Shown here: positions 17,193-25,161 of the stretch, piece by piece
Position numbering within the stretch: position 1 is the first letter of the stretch
How the letters are laid out: each line of letters opens with the position of its first letter
DNA from: Dehalococcoidia bacterium
Lineage (GTDB): Bacteria; Chloroflexota; Dehalococcoidia; Plut-88900
DNA: 64,000 nt
Direction: 5' to 3'
NCBI GenBank assembly: GCA_965249275.1
Contig: CBDFLQ010000007.1
Location: 352,001 to 416,000 of the forward strand
The notes under the pieces: generated by a model
Seen by the model: the letters and a program-made list of their open reading frames with translations, nothing else
What the model was told of the DNA's origin: nothing
Database searches by the model: none
Made by a program: the position numbers and the translations under genes

Positions 17193-17609
17193 ATGGACTA
17201 CAACGACGCCCTAGCCTTTCTATCATCCAACTTCGACGCCGTCGTCAACACCTTCAGAAGGTCCGGCGCCATCCAGTCCAGTGTGGTAAAGGCCGGGGCC
17301 TATCAAAACGGTGTCGTCTTCGTTGCCATCGGCAACTCGGCAAAGCTGAAAAACCTCGCCCGAGACCCCCGCTGCACCGTAACCGTTGTTAGCCCCCACT
17401 GGGACAGATGGTGTGCCGTCGAAGGCAAGGTGGTGATTCGGGATTGGGACAACACGGACCACGAAGCCCTGCGCATCGAACTCCGCGAGACATTCGTAGC
17501 CTGCGGGGGCGACCACGATGACTGGGATGAGTACGACCGTGTGATGCGGGAAGATCGCCGAGCCATCGTCGTGGTTCAGCCCGACCACATCTATGGACAG
17601 GGAGTTTAG
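17193..17609 (+). CDS. PPOX-class (probable F420-dependent) oxidoreductase
   Basis: TFRRSG..QSSVV, AKLKNLARDPRCTV, DHDDWDEY..VMREDRR. Confidence 0.85.
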   Translation: MDYNDALAFLSSNFDAVVNTFRRSGAIQSSVVKAGAYQNGVVFVAIGNSAKLKNLARDPRCTVTVVSPHWDRWCAVEGKVVIRDWDNTDHEALRIELRETFVACGGDHDDWDEYDRVMREDRRAIVVVQPDHIYGQGV

Positions 17610-17629
17610 TAAGGCAGGGCCAGCTGGGT

Positions 17630-18529
17630 CTAACCGAGTAGGTTGAGGGCCTTCGGCACTACCGATATCTCGACAGGCGTCTCAGCCACCCGCTCTCCGT
17701 CCGCCCAGATGGGCATCGGCTCCTCGGTCTCTATCTTTAGCCTCTTTACGCGGTGCATGGAAACTGCCGGGTTTGTCAGGTGTCCACCGCTGAAGACCCG
17801 GGGCACCATCATCACGACCTCCCACCTCGACACTGACTGGACCAAGCACACGTCCAATATCCCATCATCCGCCACCGCCCCGGGCGCTATCTTCATATTG
17901 CCACCGTACTGGGCCGTATTGGCCGTGGCGGCCAAAAATATCCGGCCCGAGTACTCGAAGTCCTCGCCCTTTAGGTGCACCATCGCATCCCTGTAACGGA
18001 GTATCTGAAGGAAGATGGCGTAGAGATAGGAAGGCGTACCGGAAAGGAAGCGAGGCACGTGTCCGTCCGCAACGTACTGGCTCACCGCACTGTCGAATCC
18101 TAGAGTAGCTACCGTCGCGAAGTACCTGTGCCCGACTGAGCCCAAGTCTATCTGCCTCGAATCGCCGGCTAAAATCAGATCAGCTACGCCCTCGGGGGTA
18201 TTGGGGAGATCCATCGCCGCCGCAAAATCGTTGCACCTGCCGGCAGGTATGATCCCGACGATCACTCCCGAGGCTAAGGGGTGGCCCATCACTCCGTTGA
18301 TCACTTCGTGCAGGGTCCCGTCTCCCCCGCAGGCCAGCACCCCAACACTTCCCTCCTCTACCGCCTTCCGCGCCAATTCTTCGGCATCCCCAGGGCGAGA
18401 TGTATACAGGACCTCGTTAGATACGCCCGCCGAGGTCAGCAGCGTCCCCGTCTGCATCGCAAGGGCCCGACTCCTCCCCTTGCCCGACACAGGGTTGGCG
18501 ACGATGGTCCATTTGGCCCCATTCCCCAT
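17630..18529 (-). CDS. Diacylglycerol-kinase-family lipid kinase (YegS/BmrU-like)
   Basis: ANPVSG, GGDGTLHEVING, PAGRCND, YGGNMKIAP, ADGE. Confidence 0.92.
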   Translation of the reverse strand: MGNGAKWTIVANPVSGKGRSRALAMQTGTLLTSAGVSNEVLYTSRPGDAEELARKAVEEGSVGVLACGGDGTLHEVINGVMGHPLASGVIVGIIPAGRCNDFAAAMDLPNTPEGVADLILAGDSRQIDLGSVGHRYFATVATLGFDSAVSQYVADGHVPRFLSGTPSYLYAIFLQILRYRDAMVHLKGEDFEYSGRIFLAATANTAQYGGNMKIAPGAVADDGILDVCLVQSVSRWEVVMMVPRVFSGGHLTNPAVSMHRVKRLKIETEEPMPIWADGERVAETPVEISVVPKALNLLG

Positions 18530-18532
18530 GCT

Positions 18533-20119
18533 TTATGTCACGTCGCAAAGGAAGATTGGCGGATAGTGATACAGTGATACCTCGGGAGAGGGGCCTACCG
18601 TGTCCTTGGCCATCTCCAATGCCGTTGCCACGTCCGGCGCGGTCTCGTAGCCAAGCCGCTCGGCCACCGACTTGTCCTTCGCCCCCGCCACAATCACCCG
18701 GCCAAGGTACTCCTGCCCGTAGCATGCCCAATACCACATGTACAAGGGGTGGACACCGTGATATGCGTACGATTCCCGGTACAGCTTCCGATACCGTTCG
18801 TTCGAGGCAAAAGAAGCCTCAAACCTCTTCTCGATTTCCGCAGCATCCCGGGTTTCGGGCAACACGTTGTTGTAAAAATCGATATACGAGGGGTGGTGCA
18901 ATGAGTTGAATCGCTCCTCCAGCGGGTGCGAGAACACCAGTACCCCGCCCCGCCTCACCAACGGTTTGCCCCGATACATGTTGAAGCTGTAGCCGAGCGC
19001 GAGCGTGTGGATTAGCAGCGGATTCAGCAGTGAGTTCACGTTGTACGGGCAGAGATAAGGAAGGCCCATTACCACCACGTCGGCCTGGCCCTCTACCGGT
19101 ACCGCCTGCTGCTTGAACACACTCGCTAATATCTTCTCATGTACCAAGTCCGTGTCCCCCGCCGCGACATCCAGCAGTCCATATGGCGAGCGAATGTTCT
19201 GGAATATCTGCCATCGCAAATAGAACGGCGAGATGTCCAGTGCCCTACGGTTGACCCCGAATGTCACCTTGTCTATTGCATTCCAGTCTGACTCCTGCTT
19301 TTGCAGGTGTGCCAATATCGACGGAAACGTGTTCGAGGTCAGGGCAGTCTCAATCTTGAAGACGTTCAGATTCTTGGATACCACCTTCCCCATCCCGTTA
19401 ACCGAGTTATGCAACGCGGACCGTGTCGGGTCCATGTATGACTCGCACCGCATCAGTGTGTGCACGTTGTGGTTGTGCCTCATGGTCTTGTAACTCACCA
19501 GTCCCGTGTTGATCGACTTATGCCCACCATCCATCGATGAGAGGTTGATATTCACGTAGATCAGCAGGTCAGACTCCGCCACCCTATTCGATGTCTCTAC
19601 CTCCTCACCCTTCTGAGTCGTCCCGAGCACCACCAGGTTCTCCTCGTCCTCCGCATCGAAGTTGTACAACCTGTCGGGGTGGAATTCGTTGAATACCCTC
19701 TTGCCCACCGCCCGCTTCAGCTCGGAAGGAGTCATTCGCCGATGCAACCCCAGCGCGGCTACAAGGTGTATATCCTCGACACCCTTCTCTCTCAGAGTCC
19801 GAAGCACCGCTTCGATGATCCTCTGGCGCAGGTCGGGCCGCTTCATCGGTGGCAGAGGCAAAGATATATCGTCAAAAGCGATGGTTACCTTCATGCCGGG
19901 CCGAAGCTGGTGGGATAACGGGTCCTGACCCAAAGGGTTCTCTAATGCCTCAGCTATCGCTCCGTCCGCGTCTTTAATAGAGGGAAGGGCGGGCGGGGGA
20001 TAGATTATGCGACTCCCCACCGGCAGCTCCTCGAACCGGAATGCCTCCCCATGATGCATCAGGAATCGCTGTCCGGGCTTCTCGACCCGTTTGACCAGCT
20101 TGCTCTTATCTATTTCCAA
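18533..20119 (-). CDS. Lactate racemase (LarA/DUF2088) domain protein
   Basis: ALENPLG..PL, VTIAFDD, ALGLHRRM, GGHKS, HNHN; TTG start inferred from AAGGAAG. Confidence 0.8.
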   Translation of the reverse strand: MEIDKSKLVKRVEKPGQRFLMHHGEAFRFEELPVGSRIIYPPPALPSIKDADGAIAEALENPLGQDPLSHQLRPGMKVTIAFDDISLPLPPMKRPDLRQRIIEAVLRTLREKGVEDIHLVAALGLHRRMTPSELKRAVGKRVFNEFHPDRLYNFDAEDEENLVVLGTTQKGEEVETSNRVAESDLLIYVNINLSSMDGGHKSINTGLVSYKTMRHNHNVHTLMRCESYMDPTRSALHNSVNGMGKVVSKNLNVFKIETALTSNTFPSILAHLQKQESDWNAIDKVTFGVNRRALDISPFYLRWQIFQNIRSPYGLLDVAAGDTDLVHEKILASVFKQQAVPVEGQADVVVMGLPYLCPYNVNSLLNPLLIHTLALGYSFNMYRGKPLVRRGGVLVFSHPLEERFNSLHHPSYIDFYNNVLPETRDAAEIEKRFEASFASNERYRKLYRESYAYHGVHPLYMWYWACYGQEYLGRVIVAGAKDKSVAERLGYETAPDVATALEMAKDTVGPSPEVSLYHYPPIFLCDVT

Positions 20120-20171
20120 TACAGCTTCCTTATATCTCAGTGGCCTTCGCGGTAAGTGTAGCAAGCCCCGG

Positions 20172-21413
20172 TTAGTCGGGAAAGGTGAACACCATCTTTC
20201 CGCCTCCCAGCCTCCCCGCCCGACCCGCTTTCACTATTGCCTCCCGGTACCGCTCTATGGGAAACCTGTGACTCACCAGCCTCGACACCCCGGAACGGAA
20301 GTTTCCGTCCCTCATGAGGTCTTTGGCCAGTTCGAACGTCTTCATCTCTTTGTCCCTGGTCCGCTCTATCCCGTAGGCGTAAGAGCCTATAAATCGCACC
20401 TCCTGGTGCCACAGGGGCGTCAGGTCGGCTTTCGCATCCGACGGCATTCCCAGGGCCACGAGCGTCCCGTTCTCCATCGTCCACCTCATTGCATCTTCCA
20501 GCGCTGCCGACGTGCCAACACACTCGAACACAACGGGAAACCCGCCCGAAACAGCCGGCTTCCCCCGAATGACCGACAGCACCTTCGCCCCGACCTCGTC
20601 CGACAGCTGCGCATATCCCCCCACACCAGCATCACATACCACGTTGGCTCCCAAGTCCATGGCCTTACGCTTCTGTGATTCGTATTTGGCCACAGCCACT
20701 ATCCGGCATTCCGGTTGTAATGCCCTCAGCGCTGCAATGGTCAGCAATCCAACTACACCACACCCGACCACGAGCACGGGCCCCGGCCCTTCTATCCCGG
20801 CCCTAAGCACTCCGTGAATAGCACACGATAGCGGCTCCAACAGCACCGTCGTCTCGTCCGAAAAGTCATCCGGGACTCGGTGCAACTGCGCTGTGTGCGC
20901 CACGAACCGTTCACCCCAGCCTCCCGGCAAGCTTCGGCAATACCCGATCTGCAGCCCCGCCGAAAATTCCCCTTCCGTTGTCCGCACGCAGTTAGCATAC
21001 CGTCCCGCTGCACATTGAGGGCACAAGTCGGGCATCCCCCTGACCGTGCAGCCCAAAGCCGGTTCTATTGCCACCCTTTCTCCCACCTGGAACTCTTCAA
21101 CCCCTTCCCCCACCTCAATTATCTCCGCCACAACCTCGTGGCCCGGGACAAGTGGAAATGACGTAAAACCAGATAGATACAAGCTCCCCCTGCACATCAC
21201 CACTACCAGGTCAGACCCACAGATCCCACTCATAATCGTGCGCACCTTGACCCAATCTGGACCCGGCAGCGCTGGCTCCTGCACGTCCTTCATCCGCAAA
21301 ACAGCAGTCGGGCCCAACGACAACCGTGGGAACCGTTTGGAAAGCGCCCTGGTCACCAGCCACCGTGGAATACTCTTGGAAACAACTAATGCCTTCACAA
21401 AAACCTGTCTCAT
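20172..21413 (-). CDS. Zinc-dependent alcohol dehydrogenase (MDR)
   Basis: GICGSD, GHE, C...CPQC...C structural Zn site, GCGVVG. Confidence 0.9.
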   Translation of the reverse strand: MRQVFVKALVVSKSIPRWLVTRALSKRFPRLSLGPTAVLRMKDVQEPALPGPDWVKVRTIMSGICGSDLVVVMCRGSLYLSGFTSFPLVPGHEVVAEIIEVGEGVEEFQVGERVAIEPALGCTVRGMPDLCPQCAAGRYANCVRTTEGEFSAGLQIGYCRSLPGGWGERFVAHTAQLHRVPDDFSDETTVLLEPLSCAIHGVLRAGIEGPGPVLVVGCGVVGLLTIAALRALQPECRIVAVAKYESQKRKAMDLGANVVCDAGVGGYAQLSDEVGAKVLSVIRGKPAVSGGFPVVFECVGTSAALEDAMRWTMENGTLVALGMPSDAKADLTPLWHQEVRFIGSYAYGIERTRDKEMKTFELAKDLMRDGNFRSGVSRLVSHRFPIERYREAIVKAGRAGRLGGGKMVFTFPD

Positions 21414-21475
21414 CCCCTCTCCCTACATGGGAGAGGACTAGGGCCGTAGGCTCGCTGAAGAGAGTGAGGGTATCG

Positions 21476-22165
21476 CTATCCTTTTAGGGTCCACCATTGC
21501 ACTGGCCAATCCCTGGCACGGGCCAGCTTCCCCAATCTGCGTTCCGGGTTTACCGCTATCGGATGCCCCACCAACTCCAGGAGCGGCAGGTCCGAAATGT
21601 CGTCCGCGTAGGCGTAGGAGTCCGACAATACTACCCCACATTTCTCCGCCCAGATCTTTGCGGCCTCCGCTTTCCCGGTTCCACTCAGAGGTCCAAACTC
21701 CAATTCCCCCGTGAATCGTCCCCCGTCCACTTTGCCCCGGGACGCCATCACCTCGTCGACCCCCAGCAAGTCCCCCAGAGGCCTGACCATCTCCATTAGC
21801 CCGCCGGTAAGGAGCACCACCTTGTGACCATCAGTCCTGTGTCGCTCCACCTCATCCCTCGCCTCCCTGAAGAGCCGCCGGCCCCAGTACTCTGCGCCTC
21901 TCCTCTTAGCCCAGCCTACCAGGTCCCCCACCGCTGACCCGCGGTAGTTCTTAAAGAATCCCTTGATGAATTTAACCCTGTCAGTCCAGTCCGTCAGGGC
22001 GTAAAGCGGAATTCTGGGGGCAAAAGCTGCTAACCACAGACTCCGGCTTAAGAGGCCTTTCCCTTCCAGGGCGTAGTCCAGGTAAACGTCCAGCAGATTT
22101 GAAGAGGCGATGGTCCTGTCCACATCAAAGAACGCCGCAACTCTGGCATTAGGCCCTCCCATCAA
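21476..22165 (-). CDS. HAD-IB family phosphatase
   Basis: AAFFDVDRT, LLTGG, GKAEA, SYAYADDISDLPLL...AVNP. Confidence 0.9.
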   Translation of the reverse strand: MMGGPNARVAAFFDVDRTIASSNLLDVYLDYALEGKGLLSRSLWLAAFAPRIPLYALTDWTDRVKFIKGFFKNYRGSAVGDLVGWAKRRGAEYWGRRLFREARDEVERHRTDGHKVVLLTGGLMEMVRPLGDLLGVDEVMASRGKVDGGRFTGELEFGPLSGTGKAEAAKIWAEKCGVVLSDSYAYADDISDLPLLELVGHPIAVNPERRLGKLARARDWPVQWWTLKG

Positions 22166-24404
22166 GCGCCTCGACTGCCGCCTGCACTTCCCCGGTCACC
22201 TCGCGGCTCAACTCACTCAACCCCTTGGCGTCGGCTCCGTCGGACCTGCCCGCGAAGCAGATAGGCGCCCCAAAACGTATGGAGACGGGATGCCGCTTCA
22301 CTCTTACCGTACCTTTAGGCATCGCTTTATGCGAGTCCTTGATAAACGCGGGTACGACGGGGGCCTCGGACATGAGGGCAAGGAACCCTATGCCGTTCTT
22401 GAAGGGTTGTATCCTTCCCGGCCGACCCCTGCTCCCTTCCGGGTAGAAAACCAGTGCGTGCCCCTTTTCCAATACCGCCAACGCCAACCCGAGCTCCTCC
22501 CGAGACGTCCCCTTCCTGTCGAAAGGGATCGCCGTGAACAGTCCCCTTACCATGCGCGACATGAACCCGTTTTCAAAAAAGTAGTCCTTGGCCGCCACGG
22601 GGTGTACTTTCTCACCTCTCCGCCCGAGAGCATGGAATATCACCGGCGTGTCCATGTGGCTATTGTGGTTCGAAGCAATGATATAAGGCCCGGAGTCTGG
22701 AATGTTCTCAAGCCCCTCACACCGGAAACCCGTCCACCACCTGATCGCCGAGCTCATAAGAAAGAACAGAGCTTGCCCCCAACACCTGATCCACAGTGGG
22801 ACCTTGAACCACCTCTCGGCTTCTGCGCCGAATCCCGCATCCAAAACGCGAGTCGCGTTTCCCCTGGACTCAGGGGCCATGCCGAGCAGGTACTTCTTCA
22901 CACCCGGAATATGCACATCCTGAAGGTAGGACTCCCAGTCCAGCTTACCGATATCGAAGTCAAAATTCTCCTTATCACTCTCGTGAAGCGCACCCATCGC
23001 ACTGCGGGTGTTAGTGGTGAGGAACTTGCATTCAGCCTCGGCGTAAGGTCCGTACAACCTGCCGTACTGGTACAGCCTCTCCAGCGACACCATCTTCAAC
23101 TTCAATCTGTTATGAAAGCGTCGGGTCCAAGGCGTAAAGGAGATGGGCGCCGTAGCTGCGATGGCGGCTCGGAGCGGGAGCATATAGCGCAGGCGGATAT
23201 GGCGAAGGAATTTGGTGGTGGTGGGAAAGGTAGGTTTGGTGAGTTTCCTTGCTTGTCCCCCCTCATCCCCTGACACCGGAAACGGGTTCTTCTGGAAATG
23301 CGCGTCAACCTGGTCTGCGAACCCCTCCAGCGTTATCGGGTTCTCCATCCCTGAGGCAATCTGGTACACCTTTGGAGAGTCATCTACCGAGGCTTGCGCG
23401 ACGATGGCCAATATAGCGTTGGCGACCATGTCAACGGGTATGATGTCCAGTATCCCGTCCCGTTTGCCCGGGAAATCGATCATTCGGCCCCGTCCGTAGG
23501 CCACTATCAGCGGGTCGAGCATCCGAAAACCGTTAAGCCAACCCGGTACAGGCGCTTTCCAGGCGCCTTCTATTATGGCCGGCCTGATAATCGCCCCTTT
23601 CATACCTCCAATGCTCCGCACAAACATCTGCTCACCCATCGCTTTGGAGAAGGTGTACACGTCCTGCCAACCGCGCCTGTGAGCCCATTCCATGCCGATC
23701 TTGCTCAGCTGCTTGTCCAGCCGCTCAGACTCGGCGCGGCTAACCTGCCCCTTCGCTCCCCTCACCGACCCCGCTTTCGCCAGAATCGCCTCGATCTCCT
23801 CTTCCACATCGTAGTCTGTCTGGGGAATACCGTTGATGTCCCCGACAGTACGGGTCGGGTCTGGCAGCTCCTCCGACACAGGCCCTTTGCGAGTAGCATT
23901 CACGTAGCAGGTAGAAACTTGGGCGAAAAACGGGTCCTTACATCCCTTTGCGAACTCAACCATTCGACCGGGACCCAAGGTGTTCAATCTCACTGCCGTA
24001 TCCAAAGGCGCATCGAAGGAGACGACCGCGGCGCAATGAATAATTATGTCGACTTCGCCTTGCAAACGCTTGTATGTTTCCGGGTCCAGGCCCAGCTTAT
24101 CTATAGCTACATCCCCTGAGACGGCATGGATCTTGCTATCGAAGAGGCCGTCGAAAGCATCTCCCATCCTGTCTTTCAACGGCTCGAAGATCTGGGATTC
24201 GAAGACTTCCTGTTTGAGTCTTTCGTCTATGGATATAGCTGTGGCTGTGGCCCCGGCCCGTGTCTTGGGCCTGACAAGAACGTAGACAACCGCGATGTCA
24301 GGAAGAAGGCTGAGCATTCTCTCCAGGAGCACTTTGCCCAACAGGCCCGTGCCGCCTGTGAGAAGCACAGTCTTTCCCCTGTAGAAGTCTCGAAGTGGTT
24401 GCAA
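22149..24404 (-). CDS. Fatty acyl-CoA reductase (NAD_binding_4 + Sterile) fused to a PlsC-type acyltransferase
   Basis: TGGTGLLGKVLLE, IIHCAAVVSFD, VSTCYV, YTFSKAMGE, RPAII, DIIPVD; C-terminal NHNSHMD (HxxxxD) and FYPEGSR. Confidence 0.88.
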   Translation of the reverse strand: MQPLRDFYRGKTVLLTGGTGLLGKVLLERMLSLLPDIAVVYVLVRPKTRAGATATAISIDERLKQEVFESQIFEPLKDRMGDAFDGLFDSKIHAVSGDVAIDKLGLDPETYKRLQGEVDIIIHCAAVVSFDAPLDTAVRLNTLGPGRMVEFAKGCKDPFFAQVSTCYVNATRKGPVSEELPDPTRTVGDINGIPQTDYDVEEEIEAILAKAGSVRGAKGQVSRAESERLDKQLSKIGMEWAHRRGWQDVYTFSKAMGEQMFVRSIGGMKGAIIRPAIIEGAWKAPVPGWLNGFRMLDPLIVAYGRGRMIDFPGKRDGILDIIPVDMVANAILAIVAQASVDDSPKVYQIASGMENPITLEGFADQVDAHFQKNPFPVSGDEGGQARKLTKPTFPTTTKFLRHIRLRYMLPLRAAIAATAPISFTPWTRRFHNRLKLKMVSLERLYQYGRLYGPYAEAECKFLTTNTRSAMGALHESDKENFDFDIGKLDWESYLQDVHIPGVKKYLLGMAPESRGNATRVLDAGFGAEAERWFKVPLWIRCWGQALFFLMSSAIRWWTGFRCEGLENIPDSGPYIIASNHNSHMDTPVIFHALGRRGEKVHPVAAKDYFFENGFMSRMVRGLFTAIPFDRKGTSREELGLALAVLEKGHALVFYPEGSRGRPGRIQPFKNGIGFLALMSEAPVVPAFIKDSHKAMPKGTVRVKRHPVSIRFGAPICFAGRSDGADAKGLSELSREVTGEVQAAVEALDGRA

Positions 24405-24594
24405 GGAAGTACGCTGGGTGTCGTCTAACTAAGGTAGGAAAACAAGCGGAGCAGCGTCCAAACCTGGGGCTCCGCCAACCCCGACGCATTATAGTTTCCG
24501 CCGGTCGAATCGTCCATTACCCCCCACATCCCCTCTCCTCTCTTGAATAACCTGGCATGGTCTGGGGTACCTGAAACCTCACCCACTTCCTCTA

Positions 24595-25161
24595 TCATTC
24601 GGTCGCCAAGTGCCGTGCCACCTCCGTGAGCCCCGTCACCCGAGTTACGTTTTCCCCGTATTGGTACCCTCGATTCCTTGGCCAGTCCCTCAGAAACACC
24701 CTCGACAGCCCCTTCCGAGACAGATGATCGGCAACCCGGCCATCGTCATCTACGAACTCCTCAATCCCGAGTTCCGAGCACATATGCCACTTGAAGTCCG
24801 GGGATCGCAAGCCCAGGTTGTTCGAGTGGACCTCGCGGAACAGGTGGAGAAACCCATGTGCTTTCAACCATCCCTCTATTAGCCCCGCTCCAATCCCGTT
24901 CCGACTGGTAACCAGTACCGGGGTTCGGAACTCGCTTATCGATTCGATCCCCTCCTGAGCGTCCTCCAGTGGCTTGCGCCCATAGTACTTGAGCTTCAAT
25001 AGCCACTTCATTGCCACAAGCCCGATTCCTGAAGGAGTTTCTCTGCTCTTCGAGTTGAGTGGGCGGCTCTCGTATGGTCCCGGTGCTATCGGCACGTTTA
25101 GTCCGAAGGGAGGGCGGCAAATTACACCGTCCATATCTATGCCTATCAGGGGTTTGTCCAT
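24595..25161 (-). CDS. HAD-superfamily protein (5'-nucleotidase-like)
   Basis: IGIDMDGV, LVTSR, K...FVDDD. Confidence 0.7.
   Translation of the reverse strand: MDKPLIGIDMDGVICRPPFGLNVPIAPGPYESRPLNSKSRETPSGIGLVAMKWLLKLKYYGRKPLEDAQEGIESISEFRTPVLVTSRNGIGAGLIEGWLKAHGFLHLFREVHSNNLGLRSPDFKWHMCSELGIEEFVDDDGRVADHLSRKGLSRVFLRDWPRNRGYQYGENVTRVTGLTEVARHLATE

Follow-up and report, generated by a model that had tools for sequence, protein, structure and literature searches.

A minimal elb-type operon pairing a fatty acyl reductase-acyltransferase with a LarA homologue in a Dehalococcoidia genome without detectable AGPS

Two routes to ether lipids are described for Myxococcus xanthus. One depends on the elbABCDE genes and is independent of AGPS, the FAD-dependent alkyl-dihydroxyacetone-phosphate (alkyl-DHAP) synthase (Lorenzen et al. 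2014, via PMC9131029 and PMC13012113). The other combines AGPS with a two-domain fatty acyl reductase (FAR)-acyltransferase, FARAT, and is represented by TtFARAT of Tetrahymena and by MXAN_1675/1676/1674. We identified five co-oriented minus-strand open reading frames (ORFs) at positions 17630-24404 of a 64,000-nucleotide stretch of a Dehalococcoidia bacterium genome (GenBank assembly GCA_965249275.1, contig CBDFLQ010000007.1, positions 352,001 to 416,000 of the forward strand; this whole stretch is called the window below). They appear to be a minimal five-gene form of an elb-type cluster in a genome where no AGPS was found. Beside ElbD or FARAT, genomes carry either a homologue of the lactate racemase LarA (LarAH) with a HAD hydrolase or else AGPS, rarely both and never neither, which makes this putative nickel-pincer enzyme a candidate for the ether-bond step of an AGPS-free route. 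We estimate a probability of roughly 0.6 that the operon makes 1-O-alkylglycerol (ether) membrane lipids without AGPS, and we infer both the product and the chemistry of LarAH from sequence.

PMC9131029 describes ElbB as a phosphohydrolase of HAD-like type, ElbD as a FAR-ACS-ACP-acyltransferase (ACS, acyl-CoA synthetase; ACP, acyl carrier protein), and ElbA and ElbE as NAD epimerase/dehydratase proteins, and calls the function of ElbC unknown. Myxococcus genetics link elbD to both alkyl and vinyl ethers, and the elbD-dependent species is an aldehyde, not an alcohol. The genes elbA to elbE are MXAN_1531 to MXAN_1527 (PMC13012113), so elbC is MXAN_1529, which Dataset S2 of Desguin 2020 assigns to LarAH group 15. 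Table S1 of the same study lists the gene context of group 14 as COG0204, COG0560 and COG1063 (88% each) and COG3320 (50%), that of group 15 as COG0451 (150%), COG0560 (100%) and COG1022 (75%), and that of group 16 as COG0204 and COG0560 (100%). All three groups are given as of 'unknown function', and in the available parts of the study no link between group 14 and ether lipids is drawn.

The five genes of the window are as follows, in the order in which they would be transcribed.

22149..24404, minus strand: FARAT, 751 aa with a TTG start; PF07993, PF03015 and PF01553
21476..22165, minus strand: HAD-IB hydrolase, putative ElbB counterpart, 229 aa; PF12710 at 99 bits and TIGR01490 at 123 bits
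20172..21413, minus strand: Zn-dependent medium-chain dehydrogenase of polyol-dehydrogenase type (ADH), 413 aa; ADH_N and ADH_zinc_N
18533..20164, minus strand: LarA homologue of the LarAH14/15/16 family, putative ElbC counterpart, 543 aa from the first TTG; NF052592
17630..18529, minus strand: soluble lipid kinase of the YegS/DgkB/Rv2252 family, 299 aa; DAGK_cat, YegS_C and TIGR00147

Judged by its domains the cluster is of elb type, with the HAD hydrolase corresponding to ElbB, LarAH to ElbC, and FARAT to ElbD minus the adenylation and carrier domains; its context is of the group 14 type in a Chloroflexota host. The original prediction, made from the letters of the window, had likened the cluster to the Myxococcus elb operon and had named HAD and DUF2088-type neighbours of elb genes. 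Counterparts of ElbB, ElbC and ElbD could indeed be identified, and the neighbours named agree with the description of ElbB as a HAD protein (PMC9131029) and with the placement of MXAN_1529 (elbC) in LarAH group 15 (Desguin 2020). As in M. xanthus, an ElbB-type HAD-IB protein, a LarAH14-16 ElbC and a protein running from FAR to an HX4D acyltransferase are linked co-directionally. However, the ElbD counterpart of the window has neither ligase nor carrier domain (751 aa compared with about 1450-1540 aa), a Zn-dependent medium-chain dehydrogenase stands in place of the SDR (short-chain dehydrogenase/reductase)/epimerase-type ElbA and ElbE, the unit includes a YegS-type lipid kinase, and M. xanthus has both routes whereas the window genome has no AGPS.

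The resemblance to the neighbourhood of LarAH group 14 (Desguin 2020) is close, as AGPAT (COG0204), HAD (COG0560), Zn-ADH (COG1063) and thioester reductase (COG3320) functions are all represented, and group 14 likewise keeps LarA D72, H108, K184 and H200, has leucine for R75, and is missing H174. In the window, in contrast to group 14, reductase and acyltransferase form one polypeptide and a lipid kinase follows. The eight group 14 genes come from GeConT 2 genomes, the three named ones being actinobacterial (Acidimicrobium, Ilumatobacter and Frankia), whereas the window is from Chloroflexota. A further AGPS-free system, the anaerobic Ger/PlsA-PlsR route to ether lipids and plasmalogens, uses unrelated enzymes for the reductive conversion of an existing ester; none of its genes is in the cluster, the rest of the genome not having been searched for them.

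The distribution of LarAH and AGPS is the main new result. We aligned 23 FAR-AT proteins from the best 120 of 318 database matches, used the alignment to retrieve 79 loci from genomes of named species, and searched these loci by tblastn with six window proteins. LarAH14-16 and AGPS were then scored genome-wide for 60 of the 79 loci, and likewise in the host genome, after leaving out eleven loci where just a short stretch of acyltransferase matched (L021, L022, L025, L027, L033, L059, L064, L067, L072, L073 and L078) and eight near-duplicate Binatus-like loci (L053, L054, L056, L057, L061, L062, L069 and L070). These 61 ElbD/FARAT genomes comprise 47 with LarAH only, 10 with AGPS only, 4 with both and none with neither, counts that describe a pattern and are not a statistical test. 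The AGPS-only genomes are those of L041, L015, L014, L016, L029, L010, L044, L049, L071 and L077, the AGPS of L010 being a C-terminal fragment at a contig start, and both proteins occur with L042, L055, L065 and L076, the L076 match being weak (32% identity). Mapped on a tree of FAR domains, the exclusive LarAH and AGPS states require at least 4 changes among 52 scored rows. The ElbB-type HAD goes with LarAH: 38 of 46 LarAH-only loci have one at most 10 kb from the FAR gene, compared with none of the 10 AGPS-only loci and none of the 4 loci with both; a dehydrogenase is found within the same distance at 19 LarAH-only loci and at no locus of the other two kinds. The kinase does not discriminate (18 LarAH-only, 3 AGPS-only and 2 'both' loci).

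A second sample gave a similar picture. We examined 251 genomes of Acidobacteriota, the phylum of L066, which were chosen independently of the window protein. An ElbD-sized protein is present in 39, with LarAH only in 25, AGPS only in 13 (E <1e-150), both in one (G479) and neither in none; when G407, a genome flagged as unpublished, is set aside, the 38 remaining genomes divide into 24, 13, 1 and 0. Among the other 212 genomes LarAH occurs twice and AGPS once, the latter as a FAR-AGPS fusion. Within the subgroup most like L066 (20 genomes) both states are found, LarAH in 7 and AGPS in 13. Across genomes, ElbD/FARAT has two alternative sets of partners, LarAH with HAD on the one hand and AGPS on the other.

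The FARAT of the window is placed by a quick maximum-likelihood tree of 63 FAR domains, in which rows were kept if the tblastn match exceeded 400 residues. A single branch (SH-aLRT 99) separates all 18 FAR-AT rows from the rest, and they adjoin two ElbD proteins of Armatimonadota (97). If the tree is rooted at its midpoint, the FAR-AT group lies inside the diversity of ElbD, and under that provisional root a single loss of the ligase-carrier part would explain the group. On the non-Chloroflexota FAR-AT branch a FAD protein of 617-638 aa is encoded directly downstream (in Phycisphaeraceae, Hydrogenedentota and three Wenzhouxiangella), and this protein is AGPS (E 3e-136 to the guinea-pig enzyme, 4bby). 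By tblastn, AGPS is found in L041, L015, L014, L016, L029 and L071 and in no Chloroflexota locus. The window FARAT shares the two-domain architecture of the FARAT + AGPS pathway (TtFARAT, MXAN_1675, and L041, L015, L014 and L016) and lies on the same side of the split as bacterial FARATs directly upstream of AGPS, TtFARAT and MXAN_1675 having been compared by architecture only. In place of AGPS, however, the window has HAD, Zn-ADH, LarAH and the kinase.

The original prediction had also stated that an FAD alkyl-DHAP synthase and the adenylation/ACP domains are missing, and both absences stood up to searching. No AGPS was found in 11 of 11 Chloroflexota relatives or in six chromosome-level relatives, and in the host genome the best tblastn match to bacterial AGPS is only 22-31% identical. 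LarB, LarC and LarE are present in both the host genome and its chromosome-level relatives. Pfam gives no acyl-AMP ligase (PF00501) and no carrier (PF00550) match in the 751-aa FARAT, and all 12 Chloroflexota relatives are likewise FAR-AT only. On this basis FARAT is an ElbD-like protein without adenylation and carrier domains. All three host proteins matching PF02913 were considered as AGPS candidates and rejected as GlcD-like, GlcE-like and YdiJ-like FAD oxidases.

A separate observation concerns another genome (G607), in which a 1210-aa ORF (L106:7708-11340) has AGPS fused behind a FAR-like region (seen by tblastn; Pfam gives the FAD domains only), with an acyltransferase-like stretch adjoining. 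From its sequence, the fusion is another wiring of the same three activities.

The five genes are a conserved unit that is patchy within its class. In the 12 Chloroflexota loci (L001-L009 and L011-L013) FARAT is accompanied by HAD in 12, ADH in 11, LarAH in 11 and the kinase in 10, and all five genes occur together in 10, so that the genes do co-occur elsewhere, a point on which the original prediction had staked itself. The exceptions are L007, with only FARAT and HAD nearby, and L011, without the kinase. Two gene orders are found, FARAT-HAD-ADH-LarAH-kinase and ADH-LarAH-kinase-FARAT-HAD. Of 301 genomes sampled from the window's class, 14 have a LarAH14-16 above the family cut-off and 13 have FARAT, every one of which also has LarAH; the lone LarAH genome without FARAT (G181) is an 80%-complete assembly in 400 contigs. 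LarAH is present in all 12 genomes of the window's own family and in only 2 of 289 other sampled genomes of the class. The named relatives are metagenome-assembled genomes (MAGs) called 'Dehalococcoidia bacterium', and one 46%-identical relative bears the title SAR202-VII-2, the SAR202 label not being established for the window. In one genome of the same genus the FARAT frame is split into two overlapping ORFs of 248 and 630 aa (G093:C1:957587-959831), by a frameshift or an assembly error.

Outside Chloroflexota, full ElbD proteins (FAR, AMP-binding, phosphopantetheine site and acyltransferase; 1454-1541 aa) occur in seven other lineages (Planctomycetota, Thermoanaerobaculia, Acidobacteria, Binatus-like, Polyangia, Myxococcales and Poribacteria) and have the same kinds of partner gene beside them. 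In the Polyangia locus L060, LarAH is just upstream of ElbD and an epimerase just downstream, a PF12710 HAD lies downstream in L028, L066 and L035, and kinase, Zn-dehydrogenase and LarAH are all beside ElbD in L028 and L066. In L050, ElbD is cut by the contig end, and a HAD-ADH-LarAH-kinase run follows the acyltransferase fragment. The ADH and lipid kinase had been taken for additions of this lineage, a view that does not hold, as both are also found in elb-like clusters from Planctomycetota, Phycisphaerales and Acidobacteriota (L028, L050 and L066) and as COG1063 is already 88% associated with LarAH group 14 (Table S1, Desguin 2020). In two unrelated phyla, F420-type genes adjoin the cluster, CofD in one (L008:4111-5682) and CofC with CofD in the other (L066:5397-7003), which is possibly coincidence.

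The individual proteins retain their catalytic motifs. FARAT has N-terminal NAD_binding_4 and Sterile reductase domains and a C-terminal HX4D glycerolipid acyltransferase domain (217, 49 and 82 bits); the FAR motifs GxxGxxG and Y250xxxK254 and the acyltransferase motifs H580x4D585 and the P655-G657-R659 block are invariant in the 23 aligned homologues. The HAD protein exceeds the TIGR01490 cut-off (123 bits compared with 98), its DxDxT motif reading FFDVDRT. The dehydrogenase has GroES-like and Rossmann domains with catalytic Cys/His zinc ligands, GICGSD/PGHE motifs and a Cys-rich structural-zinc loop. Among solved structures it comes closest to sorbitol dehydrogenase (4.6e-27), ketose reductase, xylitol dehydrogenase and threonine 3-dehydrogenase, and it attains no NCBIfam equivalog cut-off. 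The kinase scores 151 bits with TIGR00147 (cut-off 119), contains a GGDGT motif and, on this evidence, is a soluble lipid kinase of the YegS/DgkB/Rv2252 family.

LarAH combines Lar_N with NF052592 ('NPN-dependent hydroxyacid isomerase, LarAH14/15/16 family'; NPN, nickel-pincer nucleotide), which it matches at 801 bits compared with a cut-off of 740. As read from the alignment, the protein keeps the residues of the NPN site, namely the ribose aspartate D99, the thioamide-link lysine K216, the nickel-ligand histidine H232 and one catalytic histidine, H141. Among 32 aligned homologues these are found in 32 (D99), 31 (H141), 31 (K216) and 32 (H232), and the residue pattern in Dataset S2 (Desguin 2020) maps the quartet D99, H141, K216 and H232 to LarA D72, H108, K184 and H200. 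The second catalytic histidine of lactate racemase is absent, and its segment is a gap in the alignment to PDB 9q2u (E 9e-34). The position of LarA R75 is leucine in 28 of the 32 homologues, asparagine replaces LarA K298 in group 14 (Dataset S2, Desguin 2020), and groups 14 and 15 have no equivalent of His174 (Gatreddi et al. 2025). The best solved relatives, LarA_Sp and LarA_Bw (PDB 9q2u and, with E 4.5e-27, 9q3j; Gatreddi et al. 2025), are like the window LarAH about 500 aa long with a single catalytic histidine, and the NPN-binding seen for them is predicted by sequence for LarAH. However, they have asparagine at the position of the second histidine and sugar-metabolism neighbours, whereas in LarAH the segment is deleted and the neighbours are lipid enzymes.

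The genes for the cofactor are also at hand. The host genome encodes LarC, LarE and LarB above their cut-offs, and LarC occurs in 50 of 50 related genomes, compared with 6 of 14 genomes used as controls. Five genomes from two phyla (G317, G318, G322, G323 and G326; L008:13104-14288) have larC less than 5 kb from the LarAH14-16 gene, which ties cofactor synthesis physically to the lipid cluster. LarAH is present in one copy in 46 of 50 genomes and is the best-conserved protein of the cluster, with 61-99% identity in the Chloroflexota loci compared with 39-94% for FARAT. One degenerate copy was found among the homologues, in L065 (H141N and K216R), whose genome also has AGPS. Two further LarA homologues are encoded in the host genome (G000:C7:679425-680831 and C6:48591-49193); one of them has relatives of about 480-520 aa in other genomes of the class and scores only about 200 bits per half with NF052592.

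If the operon does make alkylglycerol lipids, the FAR domain would reduce an acyl thioester (acyl-CoA or acyl-ACP) to a fatty aldehyde or alcohol, presumably drawing on the general acyl pool because the self-loading ligase and carrier are gone, and the acyltransferase domain would acylate a glycerol-phosphate or DHAP backbone. The trio of LarAH, HAD and Zn-dehydrogenase would replace AGPS and alkyl-DHAP reductase, with LarAH borrowing the hydride of the glycerol C2 hydroxyl on its nickel cofactor, the polyol-type dehydrogenase setting the C2 alcohol and the HAD phosphatase pulling the reaction forward. Since its nearest solved relatives oxidise the C2 alcohol of polyols, the dehydrogenase would suit a C2 ketone/alcohol step on alkyl-dihydroxyacetone or its phosphate. 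The YegS-type kinase would re-phosphorylate the alkyl(acyl)glycerol for CDP-dependent head-group synthesis and so return the product to a phosphatidate-like pool. A phosphatase and a kinase in one operon would make sense if the middle steps use dephosphorylated intermediates or are pulled by dephosphorylation. An ordinary ester-lipid pathway from glycerol 3-phosphate exists alongside, as the three copies of PlsY in the host genome show.

A more specific and distinctly tentative proposal is that LarAH14-16 (ElbC), HAD and the dehydrogenase form a bacterial module that makes the ether bond independently of AGPS. The NPN cofactor might take the C2 hydride from a glycerol phosphate joined as a hemiacetal to the FAR-made fatty aldehyde and pass it to the oxocarbenium carbon, a redox-neutral 'reductive etherification' that would yield alkyl-DHAP. 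The Zn-dehydrogenase (an SDR in Myxococcus) would then reduce the C2 ketone, and the phosphatase and kinase would channel the product into phospholipid synthesis. If true, LarAH would be the first NPN enzyme to act on a lipid and the first that is not a 2-hydroxy-acid isomerase, extending nickel-pincer chemistry from small hydroxy acids to membrane lipids. Uncultured Dehalococcoidia-type bacteria would also become an added possible source of the non-isoprenoid alkylglycerol ethers used as environmental biomarkers.

Several observations weigh against an ether-lipid function or reduce the force of the evidence for it. The counted genomes are all interrelated, many are incomplete MAGs, and those of the first set were reached via the FAR-AT protein. 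None of the tallies is therefore an independent sample, and in both sets they show a pattern without amounting to a statistical test. The host genome itself is 87% complete, in 7 contigs. A strict rule that every related FAR has LarAH or AGPS fails, since 8 Acidobacteriota HAD-FAR hits have neither. In 4 of the 8, tblastn shows a match to the FAR domain only, 3 of these 4 are HAD-FAR fusions without acyltransferase by Pfam, and the two fusions whose neighbours were scanned have another gene context. In the available text of PMC9131029, in vitro evidence for the FAR and acyltransferase activities of ElbD is lacking, ElbC is given no role, and polar effects are held responsible for the elbB phenotype; Pontiella isolates with elbD homologues gave no ether lipids (available text of PMC11868695). 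A purified LarAH14 of Frankia was inactive with NPN in 7 hydroxy-acid assays (Desguin 2020), a result that fits another substrate and proves nothing. LarC is also present in 4 genomes without LarAH14-16, and the two further LarA homologues of the host could account for its LarB, LarC and LarE. Lastly, the depth of RNA-library contigs over the cluster is as low as over its flanks, and such libraries can include DNA.

The HAD-FAR fusions deserve a separate description. Two loci (L102 and L104, in G527 and G536) encode a fusion of 779-820 aa without acyltransferase, a second FAR-like reductase, a polysaccharide-pyruvyl-transferase-like protein and an acyl-AMP ligase, and L102 has in addition an enoyl-CoA hydratase, a second ligase and a lipid kinase. 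At a third locus (L103, in G430) only the fusion was identified. The genomes of all three have neither LarAH14-16 nor AGPS. In addition, two database proteins of 1220-1246 aa (P0117 and P0118) unite FAR, AMP-binding and PF12710 HAD in one chain, a kind of fusion that adds to the evidence for joint action of the ElbB-type HAD and the reductase.

An unlikely alternative is that no ether bond is formed and that the product is a lipid altered in its backbone or head group, such as a long-chain-diol-type lipid (as in Thermomicrobia) or one of unusual stereochemistry. LarAH would then invert or shift a hydroxyl on a small polyol, hydroxy acid or glycerol phosphate, ADH and HAD would complete that branch, and FARAT and the kinase would attach and activate the chains. 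The LarA-family enzymes characterised so far do use small 2-hydroxy acids, the nearest solved relatives of ADH use free polyols and threonine, and HAD-IB members are mostly small-molecule phosphatases. Thermomicrobia, also Chloroflexota, make 1,2-diol lipids whose synthesis is unexplained in the available text of the T. roseum genome paper (PMC2615216). However, the either/or distribution involves AGPS, whose sole known job is the formation of ether bonds, and the genetics of elbD in Myxococcus point to alkyl and vinyl ethers (PMC9131029). Moreover, the active-site residues R75 and K298 of LarA are replaced by leucine and asparagine in this group, and the three PlsY copies indicate an ordinary glycerol-3-phosphate pathway in the host.

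Still less probable is an operon for fatty-alcohol, wax-ester or neutral-lipid remodelling, in which FAR would make alcohols, the acyltransferase would esterify alcohols or lysolipids, the kinase and phosphatase would cycle diacylglycerol and phosphatidate, and LarAH would be a degenerate or regulatory passenger. FAR enzymes alone yield alcohols, and the Pontiella isolates are an instance of elbD homologues without detectable ether lipids. Degenerate relatives of LarAH exist, as group 16 has lost K184 and H108 (Desguin 2020) and the L065 copy carries H141N and K216R. A passenger would nevertheless hardly be the best-conserved member of the set, with its cofactor quartet intact in 31 of 32 homologues and a single copy in 46 of 50 genomes, and the sole degenerate copy observed is in a genome that also has AGPS. 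That the five genes are chance neighbours and no functional unit is very improbable and already contradicted by the conservation data: promoter and terminator scans no better than shuffles and RNA-library depth at flank level would suit it, but the reading frames overlap or nearly abut, the same set occurs in shuffled order across several phyla, FARAT accompanies LarAH in 13 of 14 cases across the 301 genomes, and the table in Desguin 2020 associates these functions independently.

The elb operon, the presence of elbD homologues in Chloroflexota MAGs (37 of 558 in a Black Sea study) and the COG neighbourhoods of LarAH groups 14-16 are already known. New are the FARAT form in an AGPS-free Chloroflexota genome and the either/or distribution of LarAH and AGPS. 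We found no publication that joins ether lipids with lactate racemase, or elbC/elbB with LarA/DUF2088, in a search that left most subscription journals outside its reach. In its available parts, a 2026 preprint on sponge symbionts reports elb-like clusters in Poribacteria and Acidobacteriota and ascribes only ger homologues to Chloroflexota. Genome mining for elb through the adenylation domain should miss the FARAT form, which may be why that survey reports clusters for those two phyla only.

At the locus itself, the original description of five co-oriented genes with intact motifs, an overlap and then gaps of 62, about 52 and 3 bp was borne out by ORF reading and by Pfam and NCBIfam. FARAT and HAD overlap by 17 nt, a figure that drops to 14 nt with the ATG at 22162 as the HAD start. 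As read from the sequence, 62 bp separate HAD from ADH and 3 bp separate LarAH from the kinase. The distance between ADH and LarAH depends on the start codon of LarAH and is 7 bp with the first TTG (20164) and 52 bp with a TTG at 20119. The latter is probably the true start of LarAH (528 aa), because an AAGGAAG Shine-Dalgarno-like run precedes it and the NCBIfam match begins at residue 24. The genes around the cluster are ordinary chromosomal ones, encoding ABC-transporter parts, epoxide hydrolase, FtsZ, alternative complex III and cytochrome c maturation. Three other features lie in or near the cluster.

21414..21475, no strand: HAD-ADH spacer, 62 bp, containing a REP-like palindrome
24488..24516, minus strand: sigma-70-like promoter match, candidate only, TGGACG-17-TATAAT (10/12), about 85 bp upstream of the FARAT start
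24595..25161, minus strand: upstream ORF, 188 aa, possibly a small HAD/NT5C-like phosphatase, of uncertain membership in the unit

Scanning for promoters and terminators gave no excess over shuffled sequence (2 promoter sites in the region compared with a shuffle mean of 2.8), and the sigma-70-like site is a mere candidate because the number of sites in the region is not above that of shuffles. Contigs from RNA libraries, 90-97% alike, span most of the cluster (two metatranscriptome contig sets of one study, and one DNA set). Single RNA-library contigs run from the kinase into LarAH (17447-19436 and 18363-19740) and from HAD into FARAT (21939-22342 and 22111-22738). The palindrome in the HAD-ADH spacer has the form CCCTCTCCC-N5-GGGAGAGG, is often preceded by CACCCTCACCCTAG and occurs in 49 copies in the 2.9-Mb genome by regular expression. 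Around it, at 21305-21591, contig depth jumps to about 1000 in two RNA libraries and to 510 in the DNA run.

For the 188-aa upstream ORF, searches of Pfam, NCBIfam and PDB returned no family. However, it has a DxDGV start and a DDD motif, its position is kept in 5 of 12 Chloroflexota loci, and its Atlas feature score to 'FCP1 homology/nucleotidase' clusters is 0.97, which we regard as a lead only.

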